A stretch of DNA of 64,000 nucleotides from Bdellovibrionota bacterium (GTDB lineage Bacteria; Bdellovibrionota_C; UBA2361; JBIKUX01), in NCBI GenBank assembly GCA_044347345.1, contig JBIKUX010000002.1, positions 1 to 64,000 on the forward strand. The letters are read 5' to 3'. Positions 13,976-27,974 of this stretch are shown one piece after another. Made by a program: the position numbers and the translations under genes. The notes below the pieces were generated by a model. That model had not been told where the DNA came from, ran no database searches, and saw nothing but the letters and a program-made list of their open reading frames with translations. Every line of letters starts with the position of its first letter. The first letter of the stretch is position 1.

Positions 13976-14815
13976 TTAAGCACTTTGTTTTAGAGCTTCG
14001 TCATAAATCCTTTGTGGTGGAACACGCAAATTCCACACGATACCTAGCTTGCGTAAAAACAGTAATACTAAATGAGTTAAATCAATCTCCCACCAATAAA
14101 ATCCTTGTCGTTCTGAGCCAGGATAGCGATGATGATTATTATGCCAGCCCTCTCCTAAGGTAATCAGAGCAAGTATCAAACTATTTCTACTCTGATCTGA
14201 GGTAGCAAAACGTCTCTTCCCAAATACATGCGTTAATGAATTAATCGCAAAAGTTGCATGATATAGAAGTACGGTACTAACAAAAGTCCCCCACACGAAG
14301 AACTGAAGCATAGAAGTCTGCGCCGATGGCAAATACTGTTCAATAAGTACTCCAAGCCCCGCCACCGATAATAAGAAAATAAGAGGCGGAATGTAATGAT
14401 ATTTTTCAAGTAACATCAGCTCAGGATACTTTGTTAAATCTTTGACCAACTCAAGGTCTACTTCATCGTATTCTTTTGATATTACCCAACCTACGTGAGC
14501 CCACCAAATACCACGAATACCTGGAGAATGAATGTCTAACTCTGTATCAGAATGCTTATGATGATGCCGATGGCTAGCTGCCCACCAAAGAGGTCCCTTT
14601 TGAGCACTAGACGCACCTATGAATGCCAACACAAATTGAAAAAAACGACTGGTACTGTAAGACCTATGAGAAAAAAGTCGGTGATATCCGGCTGTAATGG
14701 CAAACATTCTCACCAAGTAAGCCATAAGACAAAAAATTACTGCGACAGCTGAAGCTCCTGTCCATAACGCTGACAGTGCCGCTAAGTGAATTACTACGAA
14801 AAATAACTTATTCAT
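13976..14815 (-). CDS. Delta-9 acyl-CoA/acyl-lipid desaturase
   Basis: His boxes YHRLFSH, HRHHH, WHNNHH; NSLTH motif. Confidence 0.93.
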   Translation of the reverse strand: MNKLFFVVIHLAALSALWTGASAVAVIFCLMAYLVRMFAITAGYHRLFSHRSYSTSRFFQFVLAFIGASSAQKGPLWWAASHRHHHKHSDTELDIHSPGIRGIWWAHVGWVISKEYDEVDLELVKDLTKYPELMLLEKYHYIPPLIFLLSVAGLGVLIEQYLPSAQTSMLQFFVWGTFVSTVLLYHATFAINSLTHVFGKRRFATSDQSRNSLILALITLGEGWHNNHHRYPGSERQGFYWWEIDLTHLVLLFLRKLGIVWNLRVPPQRIYDEALKQSA

Positions 14816-14967: not shown

Positions 14968-16869
14968 CTATATCTCAACATGAAATCCAATTTCTATGAC
15001 CTGCTCAGCAGGAATTTCAAAGAAAGTTGTGACTCTTTGAGCATTCTGCATCATAAAACAGAATAGTTCTTCCCGCCACATCGCCATTCCTGGTATTTGT
15101 GTCGCTATGGGTATTGGTCTATCCACAAAGTAACACGCTGTTCTAGCTTCATCTCTACTTAAAATACTACAATGTTCCTGCAAGGTAGATTGAACGTTAA
15201 CACTTTCCATAAAGCCATGATGCCCAATAACTCGATAAAAACCATCACCCAAGTCAAATTGCTCCACTCTTGCAGAGGGCTCAGCTATAAAAGGCACCTC
15301 TTCGGTAACAAAAGATAGAAATACCACTTTCTCGTGTATTATATGATTATGAAGGACATTAAAAATCAAAGCCGGTGGAGTAGCTTGAAGATCCCGAATC
15401 ATAAAAATTGAAACTCCCGGGACTCTTGTAATTTCTGATATATTTAAAGTTTTGCGCCATTGATTAAATGGTATTAAACGTTCCTTTAAATGCGTCCAAA
15501 GAATTTTTCTTCCCCTCCACCATGTAGTCATAACTAGCAACAACAAAATTCCAAGAAATAATGGAAGCCATCCACCATCAAAAAATTTCATGCTATTTGC
15601 GATAAGAAACAATCCGTCTACCACAAGAAATAAAATGAGTACGAGGCTAGTAGTAAATAAGCTCCATTTCCAGCTATCTTTTGCAACTACTGCCATCAAT
15701 AAGGAGGTAATCACCATGGTAGTAGATACAGCTATACCGTATGCCGCAGCAAGATGCGTTGAACTTTGAAAAAGTATAACCAGTGCAATTGTACCAATAA
15801 AAAGTATCCAGTTAACCAATGGAACATAAATTTGGCCTCGCTCACTTGAAGAAGTATGTAATATTTTAAGGCGAGGAAGATATCCCAGATGAATAGCCTG
15901 GCCTGTCATGGAAAAAGCTCCTGAGATCAGGGCTTGAGATGCAATTACAGTAGTTGCTGTAGCAAGTAATACTAATGGTAAAATTAACCAATCAGGAGCG
16001 AGAAGATAAAAAGGATTTTTAACAGTCGACGGATTGCTGAGTATCAGAGCACCTTGCCCCAAATAATTAAGAATGAGTCCCGGCATAACCAAAAAAAACC
16101 AGCCATATCGAATTGGCTTTTTTCCAAAGTGCCCCATATCAGCATATAAAGCCTCAGCTCCTGTTACTGCTAAAAAGACTGAGCCTAAAACATATACAGC
16201 ATGCTTTCCTCCCTCTTTTAAAAAAAGGAATCCATGAATTGGATTAAAGCTTGTTAGCACTTCTAATTTGTTTCCGATGTTAATAATACCTAAAAACCCA
16301 ATAGTTAAGAACCACAAAATAATTATCGGTCCAAAGAATGTCCCTAACATACGCGTCCCTTCTTTTTGAGCTAAAAAAAGAGCTGTGAGGACAAAAACTG
16401 CAATTGGTAAAATGTAAGGCTTCACTGAAGGCGCTATTACTTCAATACCCTCAACTGCGCTAAGTACTGAGATAGCCGGAGTTATTATACCATCACCGTA
16501 TATAAGGGCTCCGCCAAAAAGTCCTAGATAAATTACATATTTTCTTTTAGAAGAATTTTCATCGCCACCTTTTCTTAGGGCATATACCATCAGCGCAAGT
16601 ATTCCACCTTCACCCTTGTTATCTGCTCGCATTACAAATGTTAAATACTTTATACTTACGATTATAATAAGAGACCAAATTACAAGCGACAAAACTCCGT
16701 AAACATTGAAGGATGAAACCTGTAACGCATGATGATCACCAAAACACTCTCGTAACGCATACAAGGGGCTCGTTCCTATATCACCATAAACTACTCCAAG
16801 GGCACCAATAATAAGTGCTATGAGTCTCTTGTGTTGATTATTAAGAGAGGCACTATTACTTTCACTCAC
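14968..16869 (-). CDS. kup: K+ uptake permease Kup
   Basis: GVVYGDIGTSPLY, RADNKGEGG, TPAISVLSAVEG, TGAEALYADMGHF, GQIYVP. Confidence 0.97.
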   Translation of the reverse strand: MSESNSASLNNQHKRLIALIIGALGVVYGDIGTSPLYALRECFGDHHALQVSSFNVYGVLSLVIWSLIIIVSIKYLTFVMRADNKGEGGILALMVYALRKGGDENSSKRKYVIYLGLFGGALIYGDGIITPAISVLSAVEGIEVIAPSVKPYILPIAVFVLTALFLAQKEGTRMLGTFFGPIIILWFLTIGFLGIINIGNKLEVLTSFNPIHGFLFLKEGGKHAVYVLGSVFLAVTGAEALYADMGHFGKKPIRYGWFFLVMPGLILNYLGQGALILSNPSTVKNPFYLLAPDWLILPLVLLATATTVIASQALISGAFSMTGQAIHLGYLPRLKILHTSSSERGQIYVPLVNWILFIGTIALVILFQSSTHLAAAYGIAVSTTMVITSLLMAVVAKDSWKWSLFTTSLVLILFLVVDGLFLIANSMKFFDGGWLPLFLGILLLLVMTTWWRGRKILWTHLKERLIPFNQWRKTLNISEITRVPGVSIFMIRDLQATPPALIFNVLHNHIIHEKVVFLSFVTEEVPFIAEPSARVEQFDLGDGFYRVIGHHGFMESVNVQSTLQEHCSILSRDEARTACYFVDRPIPIATQIPGMAMWREELFCFMMQNAQRVTTFFEIPAEQVIEIGFHVEI

Positions 16870-16932: not shown

Positions 16933-18069
16933 TTATATGTGCTCAAGATTATTCCTAGGGACTGGAATAGTTGTTTGTAGCCCTTGTTCACCTATTGTAA
17001 CGTGAGCCACTTTCGTAATAATGCCTGAAGGAAGTGACATTGTTTGTTCAGGAAGTTCAACGATAGTTCCTATTTTTCCGAAAAATGGTTCACGAATTAT
17101 TCTAACTGTTTGTCCAATTTTAAGCCGTTCTGATCTTAACAATGTGTCATTAGATATACTTGGTTCCCTCAAATCAGCAGAATTATGTATTATTAATTCA
17201 GGCCGAACAGCTCCAGCACGAACTTGCGTCGTACCGTTAATCGATGCAGATCTTCCAGCTGAATCATTTACTACATCTATTACTCTTTTACTCAAAGGAA
17301 TATTACCAAAACCTTCTGTAATGACCAAAGAGAGAGGTATTTCTTCATCTCCAGTAACAGCTAAACCAACTTCATAGCCCAAAAAACTACTTAAAACATT
17401 ATCAGTGATAGAACCTATTACGATTCCTGATACTCCTGAATCACACGCAGCTCTTAAAAAATCAGTAGTTGGTGTAGTACCTCCTACTAATATTGTACCA
17501 GCTGCCGAGCTTGGAAGGTGTTTTTGAGTGAGCTGTTGATTTGGTTCTACATCAAGAATTAGTATATGACCAAAATGTTCACCTCCGATTCCAAAGGCAC
17601 CTTGTACTAGATTTACCATTCCGCAGATAGTTGCCGATTGCCGTGGGATAACACTATTTACCTGACCGGAAAGATACGCTGTAAGAGAAACCTCTTTAGA
17701 AGGTAAACGAATACCGACATGTCCATGCATTTTTGAGATAAACTCAACTAATCCACTGACGGGCGAGCATACAGTTGAAGACAAAATACCAAATATACCC
17801 TTTAATTGCGCTAGCACTGAGCCTTTCGCTACTGAATCTCCCTCTTTACACCTTAAAACTCGTGTTAATTCATTTCCATTAATACCAAGCGTCTCACCTA
17901 CACGAACAATAACCAACTCACCATTGACGGTAGTACGCCCAATCATTTGACCACTTTCAACCCATTCACCTTGAGAAACAGTAATCTCCCCAGAAAGTGG
18001 TAATTGGCGATGACGAGTAATTGTTATACCACGTGCTACAATGAGTGAAGGGACAAGGGAGCCTGTCAT
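16933..18069 (-). CDS. Uncharacterised soluble protein with barrel-sandwich-hybrid-like repeats and C-terminal KOW-like motif
   Basis: VSQGEWVESG, CKEGDSVAKGSVLA..SPVSGLV (hybrid-motif-like); TEGFG; TQVRAGAVRPE; LKIGQTVRIIREPFFGKIGTIVEL (KOW-like); 2-bp gap after the GlmL-like gene. Confidence 0.75.
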   Translation of the reverse strand: MTGSLVPSLIVARGITITRHRQLPLSGEITVSQGEWVESGQMIGRTTVNGELVIVRVGETLGINGNELTRVLRCKEGDSVAKGSVLAQLKGIFGILSSTVCSPVSGLVEFISKMHGHVGIRLPSKEVSLTAYLSGQVNSVIPRQSATICGMVNLVQGAFGIGGEHFGHILILDVEPNQQLTQKHLPSSAAGTILVGGTTPTTDFLRAACDSGVSGIVIGSITDNVLSSFLGYEVGLAVTGDEEIPLSLVITEGFGNIPLSKRVIDVVNDSAGRSASINGTTQVRAGAVRPELIIHNSADLREPSISNDTLLRSERLKIGQTVRIIREPFFGKIGTIVELPEQTMSLPSGIITKVAHVTIGEQGLQTTIPVPRNNLEHI

Positions 18070-18071
18070 AT

Positions 18072-19970
18072 CTATTCCTCATTAGAAGTAAATGGCATTG
18101 CAAGACTCATACTGTCTATTGCTGAGATGATAGATTTACGAGCTGATACGGAAAAATATGCTTGTGGGATAGGTCTATTTCTTCCATCGCAAAAAACACC
18201 TAAACCACCGCCTACCGTAGCATGTGATACTGAAACCCCAGAACCTCTTCCAATATCAACTTTTGAATTTAACGGTTTAATATTTATCGTAACTTCTCTT
18301 TTCACAGATATCGGAAGAACGAAAAATTCACCAACAGATAAATCTTTTTCCCAAAGATTATCACATTGTATGGAGACAATAGGTTCACCAATTTTAAACC
18401 ACTCTGGATAGATGGGAACAACTGAAAGACCGAGATGAACTAAGCAATCACGTTCAAAAACATCCCAAGCAGCCTCAGCCAATTGACCACTTAAAACACC
18501 TAAATGTGGCATCATAAATATGGAGTCAACAGCTAGTTCTGTTATCCCCTCCAAAGCAAATCCTTCGAGAAGCATGAGTGCTGTTTGCTGTCTTTTTGGG
18601 GCGTGACTTAGCACCCCTCCAGAACCAATTACTACATTAACATCTCGTATCGATCTTCGTGATATAGACTGTGAATTTTGCGAGAAAATCTGAGAAATAC
18701 TCCTTTTACGTTTAATACCGGTAAGGCCAGTAGCTAATGCTAAATGATGATCTAATGAAAGCCGTAGTGCTTCACGACAAACAGCTTGCTCTATAAGAAG
18801 ATCCTGTTCAGTGTATGGAAGCGAAGTGGGACGAATCATCTTATTTAAAAGTTCATCTCTTAGACTATTGAGGTTAATCTCAAAAGGTAACCATCTAGCA
18901 ATAGCCTCTACACCTGCCTCTTTTAGAACGTTAGCGATTGAATAACTCATCCCTAAATTGGCGCTAACAGTGCGATGAAATGTTGCAGATTGCTCTGAAT
19001 CTTTGTGTCCAATATCACCATCAACTACAAAATAACTAAAAATATCAGTAGTTGCGCCGCCAATATCAACGCACAATACAGATTTACCTAAGCGTTCTCC
19101 ATATCCCTCAACCATCTTGCCAACAGCAGCTGGCGTAGGAATAACTTCAGCAGATGTCCAAGTTAAAAGTTTATCGTACCCCGGGGAATGACTCATAACG
19201 TGAGAAAGGAAAAATTCATGAATACCATTACGAGCAGGAGTTAATTGTTCCTTCTCAAGCACTGGTCTGACATTTTCAACTACTGCAATTTGTGCAATAG
19301 GACGAAGGATTTTTACCACCTCCAAGGAAACATCCCTATTACCAGCAAAAATAACTGGCAGCTTTAACGTAGATCCAAAACGTGGCCTAGGAGCAGCATT
19401 TAAGAGTAACTCCGCCATTTCAACAACTGCATGACTTGCTCCTCCATCTGTTCCACCTGCCAACAGAACAATATCTGGTCGCAGATGCCGTAATCGTTTA
19501 AGTCTAGTCAGCTCATCCCGTCCATCATCAGCCGCAAATATATCCATGACAATTGCTCCAGCCCCCAGTGCGGCTCGTGCTGCTGAAGAAGCTGACATGC
19601 CTCCAACTAAGCCAGTGACCACCATCTGAAGACCGCCTCCGGCTGAACTTGTTGAAAGATAAAGATCGATACCATCAGAATCCGAAAGTCTTTGTCGAAA
19701 AATTAGAGGTTCATCCCTAGGTACTGTTACTCCCCGACCGTCATCATGCAAACGCACGATAGAATATGGTAGTGACTGCTGTACTTCCAAAAACGCATTA
19801 CGCAAACCTACGGTAACATCGGCAATAGGATCTTCAACTGTAGTAGGAGCTTCACCACGAGCAATTGTTCGCCAACCTTGAGGAGTTTTGGCAAAAAAAA
19901 GAGCCTTAGTAGTAGTTGAACCACAATCAGTTACTATCACGCGCTCGATATTTACCTCTGCACCCTTCAT
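18072..19970 (-). CDS. Glutamate mutase L (GlmL/MutL)-family ASKHA-fold ATPase-like protein
   Basis: Phosphate-1 TDCGSTTTK, STSSAGGGL, LAGGTDGG, PTPAAV, phosphate-2 VDIGGATTD, RTVSANLGM, adenosine IGSGGVLSH. Confidence 0.85.
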   Translation of the reverse strand: MKGAEVNIERVIVTDCGSTTTKALFFAKTPQGWRTIARGEAPTTVEDPIADVTVGLRNAFLEVQQSLPYSIVRLHDDGRGVTVPRDEPLIFRQRLSDSDGIDLYLSTSSAGGGLQMVVTGLVGGMSASSAARAALGAGAIVMDIFAADDGRDELTRLKRLRHLRPDIVLLAGGTDGGASHAVVEMAELLLNAAPRPRFGSTLKLPVIFAGNRDVSLEVVKILRPIAQIAVVENVRPVLEKEQLTPARNGIHEFFLSHVMSHSPGYDKLLTWTSAEVIPTPAAVGKMVEGYGERLGKSVLCVDIGGATTDIFSYFVVDGDIGHKDSEQSATFHRTVSANLGMSYSIANVLKEAGVEAIARWLPFEINLNSLRDELLNKMIRPTSLPYTEQDLLIEQAVCREALRLSLDHHLALATGLTGIKRKRSISQIFSQNSQSISRRSIRDVNVVIGSGGVLSHAPKRQQTALMLLEGFALEGITELAVDSIFMMPHLGVLSGQLAEAAWDVFERDCLVHLGLSVVPIYPEWFKIGEPIVSIQCDNLWEKDLSVGEFFVLPISVKREVTINIKPLNSKVDIGRGSGVSVSHATVGGGLGVFCDGRNRPIPQAYFSVSARKSIISAIDSMSLAMPFTSNEE

Positions 19971-20665
19971 GTAACAACCTGTTTAACGGCATTCCACCAA
20001 GGATCAAGAAGAAATTGAATTCGCTCAACTAGCAGTGCCATACGAGCCATAATGGTAGATCCAAAGAATGCCCCAAAACACACCATCATTAAAAGCCGAC
20101 CTGCTTTTGAAACTTTTTCAAAGATAGGACGCTTACCCTTTATGGAGAAGAAAAAGTAATACATCACCGAAAATAAAGTAAAAATAAAAACTATATTATT
20201 TATACTCGAGCCAATCTGAAATACGCCTTCTTTTACGACAATAAGAGGCTTAAAGCTGCTTGCAAACTGAGGCATCATCTCAGCAAAAAACCCCTTAAAA
20301 GAAAGTCCAGCAGTATATCCCAATGAAAATCCAATAACGAGTTTGGCTAACCAAGAAATTTTCGGAATATAGAGAGTATAATAAAATAACCCAAACCCTA
20401 GCGGTATTAGGTATAAAAGTGCAGTTAAACTGTAAGGCTCAGAGAGGGTACCATCAGGAAAAGTAGTTATAGAAGCTCCAATCATTGGAGTTATAATATT
20501 AGGCCATAAAAACTCCTTAATCGTAAGAAGCGGCAATAAACCTGCTGCAATACCAATAAAAAGATGTTCAAAGAACCGATAAAAATAATTCTCACCTAGG
20601 AGAAATGAATAAATACCAAGTGAAGCTATTCCGCCAATAAGAATTGTAGCTAATTCCCAAGTCAT
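19967..20665 (-). CDS. Uncharacterised integral membrane protein (about 6 TM)
   Basis: Hydrophobic throughout; YSFLLGENYFYRFFEHLFIG and GRLLMMVCFGAFFGSTIMARMALLVERIQFL; ATGA overlap with downstream gene. Confidence 0.8.
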   Translation of the reverse strand: MTWELATILIGGIASLGIYSFLLGENYFYRFFEHLFIGIAAGLLPLLTIKEFLWPNIITPMIGASITTFPDGTLSEPYSLTALLYLIPLGFGLFYYTLYIPKISWLAKLVIGFSLGYTAGLSFKGFFAEMMPQFASSFKPLIVVKEGVFQIGSSINNIVFIFTLFSVMYYFFFSIKGKRPIFEKVSKAGRLLMMVCFGAFFGSTIMARMALLVERIQFLLDPWWNAVKQVVT

Positions 20666-20675
20666 GAAATACTAC

Positions 20676-21539
20676 CTAAATACGCCATAATTTACCCAAC
20701 TCGCTTATGTTTCCCAATAATATGAGCAGAAGAATCAATAACTGTGTGACTCCCAGAGCAGTGTTAATTCGCACACCACTTCCCCATTGCCTGCTAGGTG
20801 TAGCTTTTGATAAAAGCTCTTCATACCATGCAGCCCCTGATACTCCTTCAAGAAGTCCTGAAAGCTGACCAGAATCTAAATAAATATAAGCTTCAGGAAT
20901 AGTAATAGAGGTACAACCATGCACTAAACTAGGGACATATCCTTTTCGCTGTAAAAATTGTACATAAGCATCAAAAAATCCTACATATCCTGTAAATTGA
21001 CCAACAAGCTTTACCTGATCTAGAGTTAAAACATCCTTAAAAATTGGCATAGAATTAATTTTAGTGCCAAATGCATCTACTCCAAGAAAAGATGGTATAT
21101 CATTTGACTTTGCTAATGCTTGCAGAAACACTGCCATCCCAGGTCGATAACCTAAATTAGCCCAGGCTACACCATATTCATATTTTTTAGTTGGATCTTC
21201 TGATATTAAACGCTTTATAACCCTTTCAGGGATACTTGAAAGAAATCCCCGTCCGTAAGGACTCAAAGTCATCAGCACTACAGGTACTTCTCTCCTGAGT
21301 AGATGCTCAAATACAACTTCAGCTTGAGATTCATTTTCTGCTCTAGTATTCGGACCAAAATCAAAACCAAGAATGGCGATGCTACTTTTATCATTAGCTG
21401 AAATACTTTCAATTGTATTAAATAATCGCTCGGCCGGCGCTAAAGGAGGAGTAGGAGCACGAATAGTGGCAACAAGAGGAATAACTACCGATGCGAATAC
21501 TGCAAAATATATCAGAGCTCGCCCTATTGACTCTTTCAT
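20676..21539 (-). CDS. Uncharacterised membrane-anchored protein (N- and C-terminal TM, central alpha/beta domain)
   Basis: Start placed at MKESIG (ATG 21539) because of an ATGA overlap with the upstream stop; FDFGP..E, YGVAWANLGYRPG, SGQLSGLLEGVSGAAWYE. Confidence 0.78.
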   Translation of the reverse strand: MKESIGRALIYFAVFASVVIPLVATIRAPTPPLAPAERLFNTIESISANDKSSIAILGFDFGPNTRAENESQAEVVFEHLLRREVPVVLMTLSPYGRGFLSSIPERVIKRLISEDPTKKYEYGVAWANLGYRPGMAVFLQALAKSNDIPSFLGVDAFGTKINSMPIFKDVLTLDQVKLVGQFTGYVGFFDAYVQFLQRKGYVPSLVHGCTSITIPEAYIYLDSGQLSGLLEGVSGAAWYEELLSKATPSRQWGSGVRINTALGVTQLLILLLILLGNISELGKLWRI

Positions 21540-22552
21540 TGTTTGTTCCGCTTTATAGAAAAAGAGCCACTTTCTATTGAAAGCCACATTCTAAAGGCCA
21601 TCACTAGACCTGCAATGGCAGCACCAAACTTAATTGCCCTAAAAGCCGCACTATTTGGTACCTCAAGTAACCACAGCCTTATATCACTAAACTGAGGAGC
21701 TATAAGTAACCCTACAAATGTCTGCCCAAGAATTACCAATACGGCGGCTATCATCATCAACAATGAATCAAGTGACCTTACTCTAAATGCTTTAAAAGCT
21801 GCATTAGCAATATACAAAGCTAAAAGCGAAAACATTGCAGCTCCAAGTGAGTTAAATAATCCCTCAACTATAAACTGATTCATATTTCTAATAACGTTAG
21901 CTTCGTATCTAATCCGCGCTAAACCTGATAAAGCAACTCCTGAAGATTCTAACTCCTCTACTAAACTTTTATTAAAAGATGGTTCACGCAATAAAAGAGC
22001 ATTGTCACTGAGTTCTTCCGCCCTTTTTTTCAAAGATAAGCTAATTGTTTCTCCACTTATATTGGGAAACGTTTTATCTATGTCAGTAGCAAACAAATTG
22101 AGCGCATCACTTAGCAAATAAACTCTCTGTTCAAAAGTAGCCTTGGGAGGCAAAGCATTGGCATGCAGATTAGATTCTTTACCATTACTAGAACTTAAAA
22201 CGACCGAATATTTAATTAATGAACGAGCCTTTTGCTGCCAAAAATCTACTTCTGAAGATGCTCGCCAATCTAACCATCCTATTACGAGGGTCATAATTAG
22301 TGCGAATATAAGTACTCCACTAAAAAAAGCCCCGTCTCTTCGAAAAATTATCTTCGCACCGTGATAACGAAGTAGATTAATAATACCGAGTCCAAAAGAG
22401 AGAGAACCTACTGTTATAAATCCATACGAAATATTGTCATGAAACTCAGCTATACCTAACGATTGCATAACAGATTCAGGAAACAAAAACTCTACAACAA
22501 AATAAAGTCCGCCCAAAAATGTTATAAATCTAATCAGCTGAGCTCGTGACAT
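21536..22552 (-). CDS. Uncharacterised integral membrane protein with helical soluble insert
   Basis: Three N-terminal and three C-terminal hydrophobic segments; AMFSLLALYIANAAFKAFRVRS, LGQ, VPNSAAFRAIKFGAAIAG. Confidence 0.8.
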   Translation of the reverse strand: MSRAQLIRFITFLGGLYFVVEFLFPESVMQSLGIAEFHDNISYGFITVGSLSFGLGIINLLRYHGAKIIFRRDGAFFSGVLIFALIMTLVIGWLDWRASSEVDFWQQKARSLIKYSVVLSSSNGKESNLHANALPPKATFEQRVYLLSDALNLFATDIDKTFPNISGETISLSLKKRAEELSDNALLLREPSFNKSLVEELESSGVALSGLARIRYEANVIRNMNQFIVEGLFNSLGAAMFSLLALYIANAAFKAFRVRSLDSLLMMIAAVLVILGQTFVGLLIAPQFSDIRLWLLEVPNSAAFRAIKFGAAIAGLVMAFRMWLSIESGSFSIKRNKQ

Positions 22553-22558
22553 CTGTAC

Positions 22559-23377
22559 TTAATTAAAAAGTGCTACCCAATCTGCGGTAAGCAAGCTCAT
22601 AACCGGTGGTAGAGTAAACCATCCACCGAGAACCTGATTCCAGGTCTCAATAATAACACCACCCGCAATAAGAATTAAAATAGCCAATTTTGCTCTATCT
22701 TGCCCAACTAAACTTCCAAGCTGCACTGGTTCACGACTCAGGTAAGCTGATGCCGCAAAAAGCTCCTCGCCAATAAGAGTGTAATCGCAAGTCGAAACAA
22801 AAAAAGCTACTTGCTCTGGACTCACACTCGCCGCTACTTGTAAGGCTCCAACCTGTTGACCGGCTTCAGCCAAAATCAATGACTCAGCGGCAAATGCTCC
22901 GAACAAGAAAGCTGCGCCAACTTTTTCTCGATGAAGCAACCCAATATATCCCGATGCAAATGCAAACTGATCCTCAGAAAGAAATAAAATATTTTGCGAA
23001 GAAAATGACGACTCTCGACCCACCGAAATATAAGCTTCTCTGGCGACATCTTCTACAATCGCCATTGCATCAGGAGCTGTTTGAGGAACATAGAGAGCAC
23101 AGCGGTAAAGAGCTGAGCGACGTGCCACGAAATAAAGCACTCCCAAGCAAGCATAAAGAACAGGGCCAACTTGAGTAAGCCCAGTTGAAAAAGAAGCTGG
23201 TCGTCCGAGTTCAGCTGCTCGACCAATAGCTTCTTCTATCGCATCTATACCAGAAATGCGCCTAACATAAATGCTCGTAGGATTATTGCGTGCACTCCTG
23301 ATGTAATACAAAACACAAGCGCACAAAGCTATCAAAATAAATAGCATTCCCGGAGTGGCGTGCTCTACCCCTTGCAC
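22559..23377 (-). CDS. DUF6754-like membrane protein
   Basis: YVRRISGIDAIEEAIGRAAELGRP, FLSEDQFAFASG, FAAESLILAEAG, FFVSTCDYTLIGEELFAASAYLS, GSLVGQD; TM at both ends; family recognised from memory. Confidence 0.75.
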   Translation of the reverse strand: MQGVEHATPGMLFILIALCACVLYYIRSARNNPTSIYVRRISGIDAIEEAIGRAAELGRPASFSTGLTQVGPVLYACLGVLYFVARRSALYRCALYVPQTAPDAMAIVEDVAREAYISVGRESSFSSQNILFLSEDQFAFASGYIGLLHREKVGAAFLFGAFAAESLILAEAGQQVGALQVAASVSPEQVAFFVSTCDYTLIGEELFAASAYLSREPVQLGSLVGQDRAKLAILILIAGGVIIETWNQVLGGWFTLPPVMSLLTADWVALFN

Positions 23378-23452: not shown

Positions 23453-23731
23453 TTATTGCTGACGTAGCCTATTACAAAGAATCTTTAGTTGCTCTGTACT
23501 GCTAACTTCTGCGTTATCGAACAAAGATATTATTTGATCGCAAAAACTTCTACCGAAAAAGGGCGCTATAACTGGATGCAACGCTATAGCACAATTTTGG
23601 GCTATTTTAGTGAGAGGAGTGTGTGCCTCAATTATAGCCGCTACTATCTGGTTAATACCGAGGTTAATAGTTGTATCGATAAAACTTTGCAAAAAATCTT
23701 CTTTTTGTTTCAGTTCTTCACTAAAATGCAC
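23453..23731 (-). CDS. Small hypothetical helical protein
   Basis: 92-aa ORF, GGTGA RBS-like sequence upstream, co-oriented 75 bp upstream of the DUF6754-like gene. Confidence 0.6.
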   Translation of the reverse strand: MHFSEELKQKEDFLQSFIDTTINLGINQIVAAIIEAHTPLTKIAQNCAIALHPVIAPFFGRSFCDQIISLFDNAEVSSTEQLKILCNRLRQQ

Positions 23732-23899
23732 TTATAATCACCTAATGTTATTTAAATAAACTGTCCGCTTATCAAGCCAAAAATAAGCAACTTAAAAAGG
23801 TCTTAGAACTACTCTACGATTGCAATCAATAAGGTTTTCGTCAATCCATGATGTATGTTAATCGACAATCATTAAATTTTTCAGTAAACAGAACATCCA

Positions 23900-24364
23900 A
23901 TGGCAACTTGTATCGAATATCGTCTACTTGGAAGCATGTATTGTCCTTATGCTTGGTGTGCATGGAGTATTTTACAGTCAGCTTACAAACAGACAGAGGG
24001 GCTCGACGCTAAGGGTAATACTTGGTCTTTAGTTTTTGAGATTTTATTCACTGATTCTCAGACTAAAAAAAAACGTTTTATTTTGGAATTATTTAGAGCA
24101 GACAATACTAAACTCGATGACCTGAGAGCCATCGCTCGATTTGCAAATGACACTTTAAGTAACAATCAATTAGTTCCATCAGAGCCTCATTCTCAAATAA
24201 ATGCTTGGAGTACTTTTGAATTTGCTTTTCAGGATTTATTGTCAAATCCCTCAAAAGTTCATTACTTTGATGATTCAATGATGAAATACTACCAATCTAT
24301 ACCAATTCTAGCGGCTGTTGTTACTTCGATGCAGATAGTTACTTCAGTTCAGAGAAAATTTTAG
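23900..24364 (+). CDS. Hypothetical protein (N-terminal CPYAWC motif)
   Basis: 154-aa ORF, 4 bp before the NUDIX ORF; weak resemblance to the DsbA-family active-site region. Confidence 0.55.
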   Translation: MATCIEYRLLGSMYCPYAWCAWSILQSAYKQTEGLDAKGNTWSLVFEILFTDSQTKKKRFILELFRADNTKLDDLRAIARFANDTLSNNQLVPSEPHSQINAWSTFEFAFQDLLSNPSKVHYFDDSMMKYYQSIPILAAVVTSMQIVTSVQRKF

Positions 24365-24957: not shown

Positions 24958-25752
24958 ATGTCTAATTCAAAACCAGCATTAACACCCCAGCAAAAGTATT
25001 TTTCCGAGCTAAAAACATTTGAAGCAATTAAAAAGTACAAAGAGCTATTAGCTGGCCCCACAGCGAGTTGGAGATACTTTTTTGCACTGGAAATATTTCA
25101 ATTTCTCTTAGGTGGTATTCCTGGACTTATTGGTCTCATCTTACGAGGCTTAGTCTATCCCTCTATACTTGGTGCGTGTAGAGGTTTACCAGCAATTGGT
25201 CGTTCTGTAACAATTAAACAATCCAAAAAAATTAAGCTGGGTAAGGGTGTGCTAATTGATGATTTTGTCACACTTGAGGTAAGAGGTGCTAGAGGTTCTA
25301 TTACCTTAGAGAATAATGTAGCGATAGGTAGATTATCTACTATAGTCGCAAAATCTGGAACTATCTTTTTAGAACAAGGAGTCAACATAGCCACTTATTG
25401 CAGAATAGCTACTCAAAGTTCCATTAGTATCGGAGAGAGTACTCTTATAGCCGCTTATTGCTATATTGGACCAGGTAATCATCAGGTAGGAGACGGTTCG
25501 ATTCCCTTAATTGAACAACCTATGGAGATAAAAGGGGGAGTAAGTATTGGAAAGAACGTATGGATAGGAGCTCATACAACCGTACTTGACGGAGTAACTA
25601 TTGGTGATGGTGCAATTATAGGTGCTCACACACTTGTTAAAACTGATATCCCTGCAGGTGCAGTTGCAGTGGGAATACCAGCAAGAATCATTAGCTCATC
25701 TGAAGCTTTAAAGAATCGTTACCGGAGCCTCCCGGACGAGCAGACCTGTTAG
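24958..25752 (+). CDS. Hexapeptide-repeat (left-handed beta-helix) acyltransferase
   Basis: Repeats LGKGVLI, LENNVAI, IGESTLI, IGKNVWIGAH, IGDGAIIGAH, AVGIPAR. Confidence 0.9.
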   Translation: MSNSKPALTPQQKYFSELKTFEAIKKYKELLAGPTASWRYFFALEIFQFLLGGIPGLIGLILRGLVYPSILGACRGLPAIGRSVTIKQSKKIKLGKGVLIDDFVTLEVRGARGSITLENNVAIGRLSTIVAKSGTIFLEQGVNIATYCRIATQSSISIGESTLIAAYCYIGPGNHQVGDGSIPLIEQPMEIKGGVSIGKNVWIGAHTTVLDGVTIGDGAIIGAHTLVKTDIPAGAVAVGIPARIISSSEALKNRYRSLPDEQTC

Positions 25753-26836
25753 ATGGATTTTTTTCAAATCCTCCCTCTTCACTTAGTTTTACTCTCAGAC
25801 GTAAATTATTGGCACTATCTGCATTCTTCAATGCTTCATCTAGACTGATTTTTCCAGCCTTGTACAGCTCAAATAATGCTTGGTCGAAAGTTTGCATACC
25901 TAAGTTATTTGATTTTTCCATGGCATCTTTAAGTTCAGCTATTTGAGCCTTGTGTATTAGATCCTTCACCCTAGGTGAGTCTGTCATAATTTCCATAGCC
26001 GCTACGCGACCGCCGTCAACTGTACGACATAACCGTTGGCTCAATATCCCGCGCAAATTCAAACTAAGTTGCAGATAAATCTGACTATGCCTTTCTGGTG
26101 AAAAAAAGTTAAGAATTCTCTCCATAGCTTGGTTAGCATTGTTACTATGAAGGGTGGCAAGACATAAATGACCCGTTTCCGCAAAATTTAGTGAAGCTTC
26201 CATAGTTTCAGTATCGCGAATCTCACCAATTAAAATTACATCAGGTGCTTGTCTTAAAGCATTACGTAGCGCTATTTCGTAATTCTCAGTGTCTACGCCG
26301 ATCTCTCGCTGACTCACAATTGATTTTTTATGTGAATGAACAAATTCAATAGGGTCTTCAATAGTAACGATGTGGCCAGTTGAATTAGAGTTGCGATAAT
26401 CAATCAAAGCTGCCAAGCTCGTCGATTTTCCTGAACCCGTTGAACCAACGACAAGCACAAGACCGCGCTTAGTCATTGCAATATCTTTCATGATTGGAGG
26501 TAATTGAAGCTCATCAATCGACGGAATTTTTCCACGAATTTGCCTAATGACAATACTAACTGTTCCACGCTGAACCATTATATTAACTCGAAAACGACCG
26601 AGAGCTTTGTAAAAAAGGCCCAGATTCATCTCATTTTTAGCGTAAAACTCAGAGCGTTGCTTGTCATTCATAATGCTCTCAGCTAACTCTTTGGTATCCT
26701 GATCATCAAGACAACGGTTCCCAGCTGGTCGAGTCACTCCGTTTATACGATACATAGGGGGACTATCGACAGTTATGTAAAGGTCAGAAGCGTCGTGCTC
26801 CACCATTACAGTTAACAGCTTAGTAATGTCTAACAT
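25691..26836 (-). CDS. pilU: Type IV pilus retraction ATPase PilU
   Basis: GSTGSGKSTS, TIEDPIE, ALRQAPDVILIGEIRD, TLHSNNANQ, GMQTFDQAL, ADSANNLRL; follows pilT. Confidence 0.9.
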   Translation of the reverse strand: MLDITKLLTVMVEHDASDLYITVDSPPMYRINGVTRPAGNRCLDDQDTKELAESIMNDKQRSEFYAKNEMNLGLFYKALGRFRVNIMVQRGTVSIVIRQIRGKIPSIDELQLPPIMKDIAMTKRGLVLVVGSTGSGKSTSLAALIDYRNSNSTGHIVTIEDPIEFVHSHKKSIVSQREIGVDTENYEIALRNALRQAPDVILIGEIRDTETMEASLNFAETGHLCLATLHSNNANQAMERILNFFSPERHSQIYLQLSLNLRGILSQRLCRTVDGGRVAAMEIMTDSPRVKDLIHKAQIAELKDAMEKSNNLGMQTFDQALFELYKAGKISLDEALKNADSANNLRLRVKLSEEGGFEKNPSNRSARPGGSGNDSLKLQMS

Positions 26837-26876
26837 TGATTAAACCTCTATCTTTCCGCTGTAAATAATATTTCCA

Positions 26877-27974
26877 CTATCGATATTTCGAACCTCTGTT
26901 GTATTTACTACCTGGATTAGCCTCACTACTATCCTGCTCTTCAAACATAGCTGGATTACCTGTTTTTTCTATAGCTGTGTCTCGAGTTATTTGTCGTCTC
27001 TCCACCAAGTCTCTCAAAGACATTTCCATAGTTTGCATACCCTGCCCTTGAGAAGTTTGCATTATACTGGGTAACTGATGAATTTTTCCCTCTCTTATAA
27101 GATTTCTTACAGCACTACTTCCTCTTAGGATCTCCAGTGCGGCACACCGTCCACCACCTATTTTTTTACATAACGTCTGAGTTATAATAGCCTGAATAGA
27201 TTCAGCAAACATTGCTCTTATTTGTCCCTGCTGAGCTGGCGGAAAAACGTCAATAACGCGGTCAACAGTTTTTGGAGCACTAGAGGTGTGAAGAGTTCCG
27301 AAAACTAAGTGGCCTGTCTCTGCAGCAGTTAACGCTAGTTGGATAGTTTCAAGATCCCTCATTTCCCCAACCAAGATGATATCTGGATCCTCGCGCAATG
27401 CCGACTTAAGAGCGGCTGCAAATGATTTTGTATTAGGACCTATTTCTCTCTGATTAACCAAACACTTCTTTGAATAATGAACAAATTCTATTGGATCTTC
27501 GATTGTCAGAATGTGTCCCTCAAATGTCTGATTTAGGTAGTCAACCATTGAGGCTAGTGTAGTTGATTTTCCTGAACCGGTTGGTCCAGTAACAAGTACA
27601 AGACCCTTTTCAGCGTGCGAGATTTCTCGAAGAACAGGGGGCATATTTAACTGTTCTAATGACAAAATTTCAGTAGGTATTTGCCTAAAAACAGCTCCAA
27701 GGCCACGATTTTGCTTAAAACAATTTACACGAAAACGTGCAATATCGCCAAGTTGAATAGAAAAATCTATTTCGAAATACTCCTCAAAAACCTTTCTCTG
27801 AGAATCCCCCATAATGTCATAGACTAAAGTATGAGTATCTTCTGGAGTTAGAGGCGGAGCCTTTAACTTCTTCATATCACCGTGAATTCGAACCATAGGA
27901 GGCTCGCCTGCGCTTATATGCAAATCGGATGCTTTATTCTGAACAGCAAATTCCAGAAGCCGAGAAATATCCAT
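26877..27974 (-). CDS. pilT: Type IV pilus retraction ATPase PilT
   Basis: ASDLH, GPTGSGKSTT, ALREDPD, AAETGHLVFGTLHT, AVRNLIREGK (AIRNLIRE motif). Confidence 0.96.
   Translation of the reverse strand: MDISRLLEFAVQNKASDLHISAGEPPMVRIHGDMKKLKAPPLTPEDTHTLVYDIMGDSQRKVFEEYFEIDFSIQLGDIARFRVNCFKQNRGLGAVFRQIPTEILSLEQLNMPPVLREISHAEKGLVLVTGPTGSGKSTTLASMVDYLNQTFEGHILTIEDPIEFVHYSKKCLVNQREIGPNTKSFAAALKSALREDPDIILVGEMRDLETIQLALTAAETGHLVFGTLHTSSAPKTVDRVIDVFPPAQQGQIRAMFAESIQAIITQTLCKKIGGGRCAALEILRGSSAVRNLIREGKIHQLPSIMQTSQGQGMQTMEMSLRDLVERRQITRDTAIEKTGNPAMFEEQDSSEANPGSKYNRGSKYR

Follow-up and report, generated by a model that had tools for sequence, protein, structure and literature searches.

A widely conserved gene set encoding an actin/Hsp70-fold ATPase and four membrane proteins in Bdellovibrionota, distinct from B12 mutase helpers

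In the diol and glycerol dehydratase reactivases (DdrA/DdrB and GdrA/GdrB) the large subunit combines an ASKHA (actin/Hsp70-fold) ATPase with a swivelling beta/beta/alpha domain, and ATP is used to prise the partner open. Other ASKHA proteins, as in PilM-PilN, FtsA and MreB-RodZ, are tethered to the inner face of the membrane by bitopic partners. Here we analyzed a gene set on a 64,000-nucleotide stretch of a Bdellovibrionota bacterium (contig JBIKUX010000002.1, positions 1 to 64,000; the whole stretch is called the window below), in which an ASKHA ATPase of the MutL/GlmL Pfam family (E) is encoded together with four membrane proteins (A, B, C and D), a soluble partner (F) and a small protein that heads the set (G). 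This gene set is real, widely conserved and undescribed, and it probably encodes an ATPase-plus-membrane complex and not a B12 helper. A first-pass annotation, made from the sequence, had proposed such a complex, and the proposal was supported by the co-occurrence of the genes, by a model of E with A and by the lack of any link to a B12 mutase. Its further suggestions, that the ATPase would energise or gate the complex and that the latter would be a transporter, translocase or sensor, stay at the level of inference. The features are listed below, in the order of transcription, with lengths in amino acids (aa); membrane proteins are described by their transmembrane (TM) helices, and the evidence for each feature is given in brackets.

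23732-23802, minus strand: possible 5′ leader of the operon, a weak assignment (ends of RNA-library contigs)
23453-23731, minus strand: G, small soluble protein of 92 aa, heads the gene set (profile from open reading frames of the loci)
22559-23377, minus strand: A, DUF6754 protein of 272 aa with a GTG start (PF20539)
21536-22552, minus strand: B, six-TM membrane protein of 338 aa (no Pfam family; topology from hydropathy)
20676-21539, minus strand: C, bitopic protein of 287 aa with an ATG start (fold model)
19967-20665, minus strand: D, membrane protein of 232 aa with about six TM helices (alignment and hydropathy; no Pfam family)
18072-19970, minus strand: E, ASKHA ATPase of the MutL/GlmL Pfam family, 632 aa (PF13941)
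16933-18069, minus strand: F, soluble partner of 378 aa with three domains (fold model)

The six minus-strand open reading frames (ORFs) A to F had been placed correctly by the first-pass annotation, with spacings from A to F of 6 bp, an ATGA overlap, 10 bp, an ATGA overlap and 2 bp, and both ATGA overlaps were verified by direct reading of the sequence. C has an alternative start, a GTG at 21587, which would give a protein of 303 aa. The domain descriptions were also right for all six proteins (A is PF20539, E is PF13941, and F carries a hybrid and a KOW domain). The description of the locus as a six-gene operon stood as regards these six genes, but not as regards membership, because a seventh gene, G, located upstream of A across a gap of 75 bp, had been missed.

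Gene order and co-occurrence across genomes

Relatives of E were searched for in one genome per species, which returned 594 relatives, and 80 loci were kept, many of them short contigs. A, B, C, D and F were all located within 7 kb of E in 33 of these 80 loci; taken one by one, the numbers of loci were 46 for F, 38 for D, 37 for C, 36 for B and 35 for A. Two gene orders recurred, G-A-B-C-D-E-F and G-E-F-A-B-C-D. The linked loci came from records labelled Bdellovibrionota, Binatia, Dadabacteria, Thermodesulfobacteriota, Gemmatimonadetes, Latescibacterota and Nitrospira, and the set was also found in records labelled Armatimonadota, WOR-3, Planctomycetota (including an anammox genus) and Bacillota. 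Furthermore, in five genomes in which E was found without some or all of these neighbours, a DUF6754 gene and an F gene were each present elsewhere (5/5 for both), and the A-B-C-D block was intact in every case. In two Armatimonadota genomes G-A-B-C-D, E and F were located at three separate places; a WOR-3 genome carried two tandem ABCD sets, with G-E-F at another place; a Latescibacterota genome carried F-A-B-C-D, with G-E at another place, and a Brocadia genome A-B-C-D, again with G-E-F elsewhere. Among 101 Planctomycetota genomes with a completeness of at least 90%, 28 had A; E and F were found together in 26 of these 28 and in no other genome, and 73 genomes had no A, E or F. The co-occurrence of homologues, on which the first-pass claim of a single system depended, was found both in linked (33 of 80 loci) and in unlinked form (the five genomes), and across the 26 Planctomycetota genomes.

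In the phylum of the window, DUF6754 was detected in 117 of 124 genomes (72 of the 73 of high quality, and 63 of 64 genera), nearly always as a single copy. Profiles recognized all seven genes in five of ten loci from this phylum, and at least five genes in nine of them. In one of these loci (L105), from a 1.2-Mb genome of the same class (G006), E is only 536 aa long and G was not found, which may represent a reduced form of the system in a small genome. DUF6754 was absent from all 14 well-known control genomes, which is probably the reason for which the system has gone unstudied. In a literature collection with few subscription journals, searches on DUF6754, PF13941 and TIGR01319 found no paper, and those on GlmL (including GlmL with actin-like and membrane) gave no title on this family among those listed, the matches to GlmL alone being probably artefacts of the unit 'g/mL'; GlmL combined with glutamate mutase led to background only.

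In four genomes (G004, G141, G169 and G206) the ABCD set is present twice in tandem, with a single E and a single F, a pattern that fits a shared energising module. As a separate observation, four Planctomycetota contigs (G140:C95, G151:C4, G175:C106 and G211:C308) carry a second, more distant E-like gene, 41-44% identical to E, that adjoins a shorter F-like stretch covering only profile positions ~53-312, with one in-frame stop and no DUF6754 gene beside it; this may be a paralogous pair for another partner, or a decaying one.

Members of the G family are ORFs of ~95-120 aa with a conserved 'PAI.FLE..KPL' core. In other loci a G ORF of 95-120 aa directly precedes the first gene of the set, be that A or E, and in the phylum of the window G was recognizable before A in eight of the ten loci. 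The copy in the window is divergent. With a profile built from the ORFs of 48 loci, the window itself being excluded, it was matched with an E-value of 5e-7 among 10,023 ORFs, and with a profile built from the GABCDEF-type loci only, with an E-value of 6.9e-8. It was the sole window ORF matched by the G profiles, and despite its divergence it aligns across the conserved core of the family.

Domain folds, predicted topologies and the predicted E-A contact

E is the most conserved member of the set, with a mean column identity of 61% across phyla. It matched PF13941 (MutL) over profile positions 1-450 of 450 with an E-value of 2.1e-115 and 386.5 bits; it fell below the cut-offs of NF040745 (GlmL; 213.8 versus 475 bits), NF040744 (Or-4; 210.1 versus 600 bits) and TIGR01319 (GlmL family; 167.9 versus 204.05 bits). 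The Pfam match ends at residue 509 and is followed by a C-terminal extension of ~120 aa. Three stretches of E, T14-K22 (TDCGSTTTK), D302-D309 (DIGGATTD) and G449-G452 (GSGG), did not vary among 23 sequences drawn from many phyla; we take them to be the phosphate-1, phosphate-2 and adenosine motifs of ASKHA proteins. Weak Hydantoinase_A matches were also observed. The Pfam scan gave no MreB, FtsA or PilM match for E, and no P-loop ATPase family was matched in Pfam or NCBIfam. Databases annotate the family of E as 'glutamate mutase L'.

The topologies of A to D were predicted from hydropathy and from lysine and arginine counts on alignments, and amount to about 16 TM helices in the four proteins. 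A matched PF20539 (DUF6754) with an E-value of 2.4e-81 and 273.1 bits, against a gathering cut-off of 27, and is predicted to consist of a TM helix, a conserved cytoplasmic domain of ~200 aa and a second TM helix, with both ends outside. This topology is confirmed by relatives of A that bear outside-type domains at either end, namely a PQQ/BamB-like beta-propeller of ~500 aa N-terminal of the domain in some, and PKD or Ig domains C-terminal of the DUF6754 domain in others. In B, a loop of ~135 aa between TM3 and TM4 is predicted to be periplasmic; B comes in two length classes, and the ~220-aa forms of other phyla do not have this loop. The fold model of C (predicted local distance difference test (pLDDT) score 91.9, predicted template modelling (pTM) score 0.90) has an N-terminal TM helix, a Rossmann-like three-layer alpha/beta domain (residues 44-246), which by the predicted topology probably faces outside, and a long C-terminal TM helix. 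The best VIA match of this model was 1kjn_B (Z 9.5, root-mean-square deviation (rmsd) 3.5, 142 residues aligned), further VIA matches were to generic SDR/KTN Rossmann folds with Z about 8, and Foldseek gave no match at an E-value ≤ 0.001. Residues N26, E33, Q133, R208 and R215 of D are invariant. No Pfam or NCBIfam family was matched by B, C or D, and when 18 members of each were compared with Pfam (E-value ≤ 1) the matches were scattered, in one or two members only. Profile-profile comparisons of B with D and of A with C gave probabilities of hidden homology under 1%. In a sequence search of solved structures none of A, B, C, D and E found a match, and in the Atlas A was found in DUF6754 clusters only and D in unnamed clusters only.

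The fold model of F (pLDDT 85.5) has three domains. Residues 49-123 form a barrel-sandwich hybrid domain that matched NqrA (4u9o_A; Z 8.1, rmsd 2.0, 64 residues aligned, 28% identity) and RnfC (8ahx_C; Z 7.8, rmsd 2.5, 64 aligned). Residues 130-297 form a probable swivelling beta/beta/alpha domain, with matches little above the background of the tool to phosphotransferase system (PTS) enzyme I (2wqd_A; Z 9.4, rmsd 2.6, 105 aligned) and to RraA (3c8o_A; Z 8.5, rmsd 3.2, 125 aligned). Residues 313-378 form a KOW/SH3-like domain that matched the C-terminal domain of NusG (1m1g_A; Z 8.7, rmsd 2.2, 57 aligned), with a Foldseek TM value of 0.80 to an SPT5 KOW. For all three domains the Z values exceed the tool's background only to a modest extent. 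At the sequence level the RnfC_N/NqrA_N matches of F were weak and under the Pfam cut-offs; of 23 F-family members, 18 matched RnfC_N, mostly under the cut-off as well, and the search of solved structures returned for F only a weak match to the NusG KOW (E-value 0.007). Outside the hybrid and KOW domains the Pfam matches were weak and scattered, with each family found in 1-2 of the 23 members; none was a flavin, NADH or Fe-S family. The F family comprises 3661 representatives at an E-value ≤ 0.001, with the conserved motifs QGIFGVGGE, TEGFG and GATQ(I/V)RAG. F is not expected to act as a biotin or lipoyl carrier, because the hairpin turn lacks a conserved lysine: among 23 sequences the position is taken by K, R, H, M, V, S, Y, P and others. 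A role as a phosphohistidine domain was also rejected, because there is no histidine among the invariant or nearly invariant columns.

Fusion proteins provide physical links within the set and to the membrane. Two of the best 150 F-family representatives are E-F fusions (P0265, 995 aa, and P0361, 1003 aa). In addition, there are four Bacillota-type proteins (1304-1334 aa) in which E comes after a signal peptide, an extracellular region and a single TM helix. The extracellular region is M1-peptidase-like in three of these four proteins (P0241, P0243 and P0244, ~1330 aa), with an intact HEXXH motif in P0241, and has TSP3 repeats in the other one. If the M1-like peptidase were active, this would be a hint that in the Bacillota-type lineage the system handles extracellular peptides or proteins.

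We then modelled E together with residues 28-232 of A, i.e., its cytoplasmic domain, using our own alignments. The model reached a score of 0.75, and the best of three controls 0.00. Among solved complexes 116 of 157 attain this mark, compared with 2 of 215 mismatched pairs; these counts are approximate because of the use of our own alignments. The runs shared at least 86% of the contacts, with a pLDDT of the partner of at least 77. The predicted docking site of E on A comprises residues 49-59, 87-93, 177-179 and 194-200 and holds the invariant residues G52, R53, E56 and G58 as well as D198, Y199 and T200; on the side of E, the predicted interface holds the invariant G172, G173, G176 and G177. 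Recall of a known complex by the method is unlikely, because A and E have no solved relative by sequence. A confident predicted interface between the ATPase and the membrane part, namely that of E with the cytoplasmic domain of A, agrees with the complex that had been proposed from the sequence.

Expression and flanking genes

Short parts of all seven genes were matched, at an identity of 99% or more, by contigs from three metatranscriptome runs of one freshwater study. These contigs were deepest over G, and one of them begins within A, crosses the gap and extends through G; the depths and the uncovered stretches are not interpretable, and a carry-over of DNA is possible. Three of the contigs end at 23798, 23802 and 23798, which is compatible with a transcript starting near 23800, and is no proof of transcription. 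A scan for promoters with a sigma-70 pattern gave 19 sites versus 18.7 expected, and a scan for terminator-like sequences gave 2 versus 5.0 expected, so that both were uninformative.

A Kup-type potassium transporter gene (PF02705, E-value 9.5e-185; 14968-16869, minus strand) is located directly 3′ of F on the same strand, and a fatty-acid desaturase gene (13976-14815, minus strand) also lies 3′ of F on that strand. At the other side, a 154-aa ORF without a Pfam or NCBIfam family (23900-24364, plus strand) diverges from the operon head and is followed by genes for a NUDIX hydrolase and a hexapeptide acetyltransferase, which were found near the operon in one and in four of ten relatives, respectively, at a varying distance. 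Further away, at 25691-27974 on the minus strand, there are two tandem genes for PilT/PilU-family type IV pilus retraction ATPases of 381 and 365 aa, which matched TIGR01420 with 446 and 487 bits. This pair adjoins the A-F genes in one relative (L099), and not in the other nine loci of the phylum. The acetyltransferase ORF (24958-25752, plus strand) converges with the first PilT ORF (25691-26836, minus strand) with an overlap of ~60 bp, and one start or end may have been miscalled. The Kup, desaturase, NUDIX and PilT genes were all rejected as members of the set, since the flanks vary between phyla and also within the phylum of the window; Kup showed no association with the gene set in other loci, and the desaturase was checked in the ten loci of the phylum only.

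Proposed function and comparison with known systems

The reading that we place just on the probable side is that G-A-B-C-D-E-F encode one inner-membrane machine, driven by ATP, that moves or assembles a component of the envelope. It draws on the observed gene order, co-occurrence, domain folds and fusions and on the predicted topologies and E-A contact, and from these we infer the ATP coupling, the direction of action and the cargo. A, B, C and D would form the membrane part, with B and D polytopic and with C and the loop of B facing the periplasm. E would sit on the cytoplasmic domain of A, which would be held between its two TM helices, F would be bound to E, as the fusions in some lineages suggest, and G would be a small cytoplasmic accessory protein. 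Binding and hydrolysis of ATP in E would then reshape the cytoplasmic domain of A, and this change of shape would pass via the membrane subunits to the outer face, where something in the envelope would be moved or assembled, export or insertion of an envelope component being the most likely outcome. Envelope transport or assembly is favoured because the complex crosses the membrane and has domains on either side of it, because the outer parts vary by lineage whereas the inner ones are nearly frozen, and because some genomes keep two membrane sets per E/F pair. A broader claim, which we regard as a serious possibility that falls somewhat short of probable, is that this is a new class of envelope machine, in which an actin/Hsp70-fold protein (E, with F), and not a P-loop ATPase, powers a four-subunit inner-membrane complex through its grip on the cytoplasmic domain of DUF6754, and which performs a core envelope task in whole phyla that have no studied representative. 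If true, an envelope machine with an actin-fold motor would represent a new kind of membrane energiser, and the widespread 'glutamate mutase L' annotation would have to be corrected; the most conserved parts of the set are an ATPase of the type labelled in this way and a domain of unknown function.

Several points weigh against an envelope machine. In the structure-sequence and Pfam searches none of the subunits resembled a known channel, permease or secretin, so that 'transport' is an argument from architecture, and the ATPase activity, the formation of a complex and the function of the set are likewise read from sequences and models. The fold matches of F and C are middling (Z 7-9.5), with values that, by the tool's own account, models lacking true relatives often reach. 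As for the contact of E with A, it expresses the confidence of a model and is not a measurement, and the predicted interface is not significantly more conserved than the rest of either protein (0.77 versus 0.64, p 0.055, for E, and 0.72 versus 0.64, p 0.074, for A). Related genomes are not independent, so that the co-occurrence counts overstate the support and should be taken as a pattern, not as a statistic. In addition, A was found without E or F in two Planctomycetota genomes, and the profiles found the set incomplete in five of the ten loci of the phylum of the window: two of them (L105 and L107) had no recognizable F beside E, and in a third one (L104) only G and A were recognized. Finally, some genomes carry extra E/F-like pairs without ABCD, and E and F may also serve other partners.

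The architecture could also be that of a transmembrane sensor or regulator, in which the outer domains detect the state of the envelope and E and F act as an ATP-dependent cytoplasmic switch. This would account for outer add-ons that are of the binding type and vary by lineage next to nearly frozen inner parts, and for the lack of likeness to known channels. However, none of the seven proteins has an output domain (kinase, helix-turn-helix, GGDEF or receiver), four membrane proteins with their predicted helices are many for a sensor, and the near-universal single copy in the phylum fits a housekeeping machine better; we therefore consider a sensor unlikely. Slightly less credit still is given to a membrane-anchored cytoskeletal or morphogenetic complex, in which E would be a polymer-forming actin-like protein, in analogy to MreB with RodZ/MreCD or to FtsA with the divisome. 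E does belong to the actin/Hsp70 fold family, its predicted docking partner is a membrane protein's cytoplasmic domain, and the system is core in some phyla, but E has no Pfam match to MreB, FtsA or PilM, and to our knowledge its closest family, GlmL/MutL, is not among the filament-forming actin families.

A membrane-bound enzyme or energy-converting complex, in which F would be a peripheral subunit of the NqrA/RnfC type and A-D would translocate ions, appears improbable. The first domain of F matches the N-terminal hybrid domain of NqrA/RnfC, C is Rossmann-like, and a TM helix of D starts with an invariant glutamate; nevertheless, the likeness to NqrA/RnfC is limited to one domain of 70 residues with no redox-cofactor family, B and D match no Nqr/Rnf membrane subunit in Pfam, and we know of no place for an ASKHA ATPase in Nqr/Rnf-type complexes. 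An anti-phage defence system was rejected, as no PADLOC family was matched by any of the seven proteins at an E-value ≤ 0.01.

That E is a GlmL/MutL reactivating chaperone for a distant B12-dependent mutase, with the membrane neighbours being incidental, is suggested by its placement in the MutL family by Pfam, but can be practically dismissed, because E misses the GlmL and Or-4 cut-offs by a wide span of bits, a mutase E subunit (Met_asp_mut_E, PF06368) is absent from the whole 2.53-Mb genome (95.8% complete) and passes the cut-off in none of the 124 genomes of the phylum, no mutase was found in the flanks of nine varied loci, and across the 101 Planctomycetota genomes the distribution of E equals that of F and lies within that of A. 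The only B12-binding match in the genome is located within a frame of 1238 aa, which from its length would be a methionine synthase. A link of this clade of E to a B12 mutase, which would have spoken against the first-pass proposal, was found neither in this genome nor in the phylum.

When the envelope machine is set beside known systems, E shares with GlmL/MutL the ASKHA fold family and the end-to-end PF13941 match, and differs in its scores under the cut-offs, its C-terminal extension, the lack of a mutase partner and its co-occurrence with F and a membrane module. The diol and glycerol dehydratase reactivases hold the two fold types that E and, probably, F have between them, joined in the E-F fusions of some lineages; no sequence or fold match to them was returned, and here the model pairs E with a membrane protein's cytoplasmic domain and not with a B12 enzyme. 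The feature shared with PilM, FtsA and MreB is an actin-fold protein at the inner face of the membrane, as judged from the predicted E-A contact and the anchored E fusions, but E has no Pfam match to these families, and in Pfam A-D show no relation to PilN/O, RodZ or the proteins of the divisome. With NqrA and RnfC, F shares the hybrid domain only, the remainder of F being the swivelling domain and the KOW; no Nqr/Rnf family was found in F beyond its N-terminal domain, and none in A-D. Searches of Pfam and NCBIfam found no ABC, PTS, TRAP or other known ATP- or phosphoenolpyruvate-driven transporter family in the seven proteins. E has an actin/Hsp70-like fold and no P-loop ATPase match; the arrangement resembles that of ABC and ECF transporters as a functional analogy only, in that a cytoplasmic ATPase module is combined with multi-subunit membrane modules, and one E/F pair can go with two ABCD sets.

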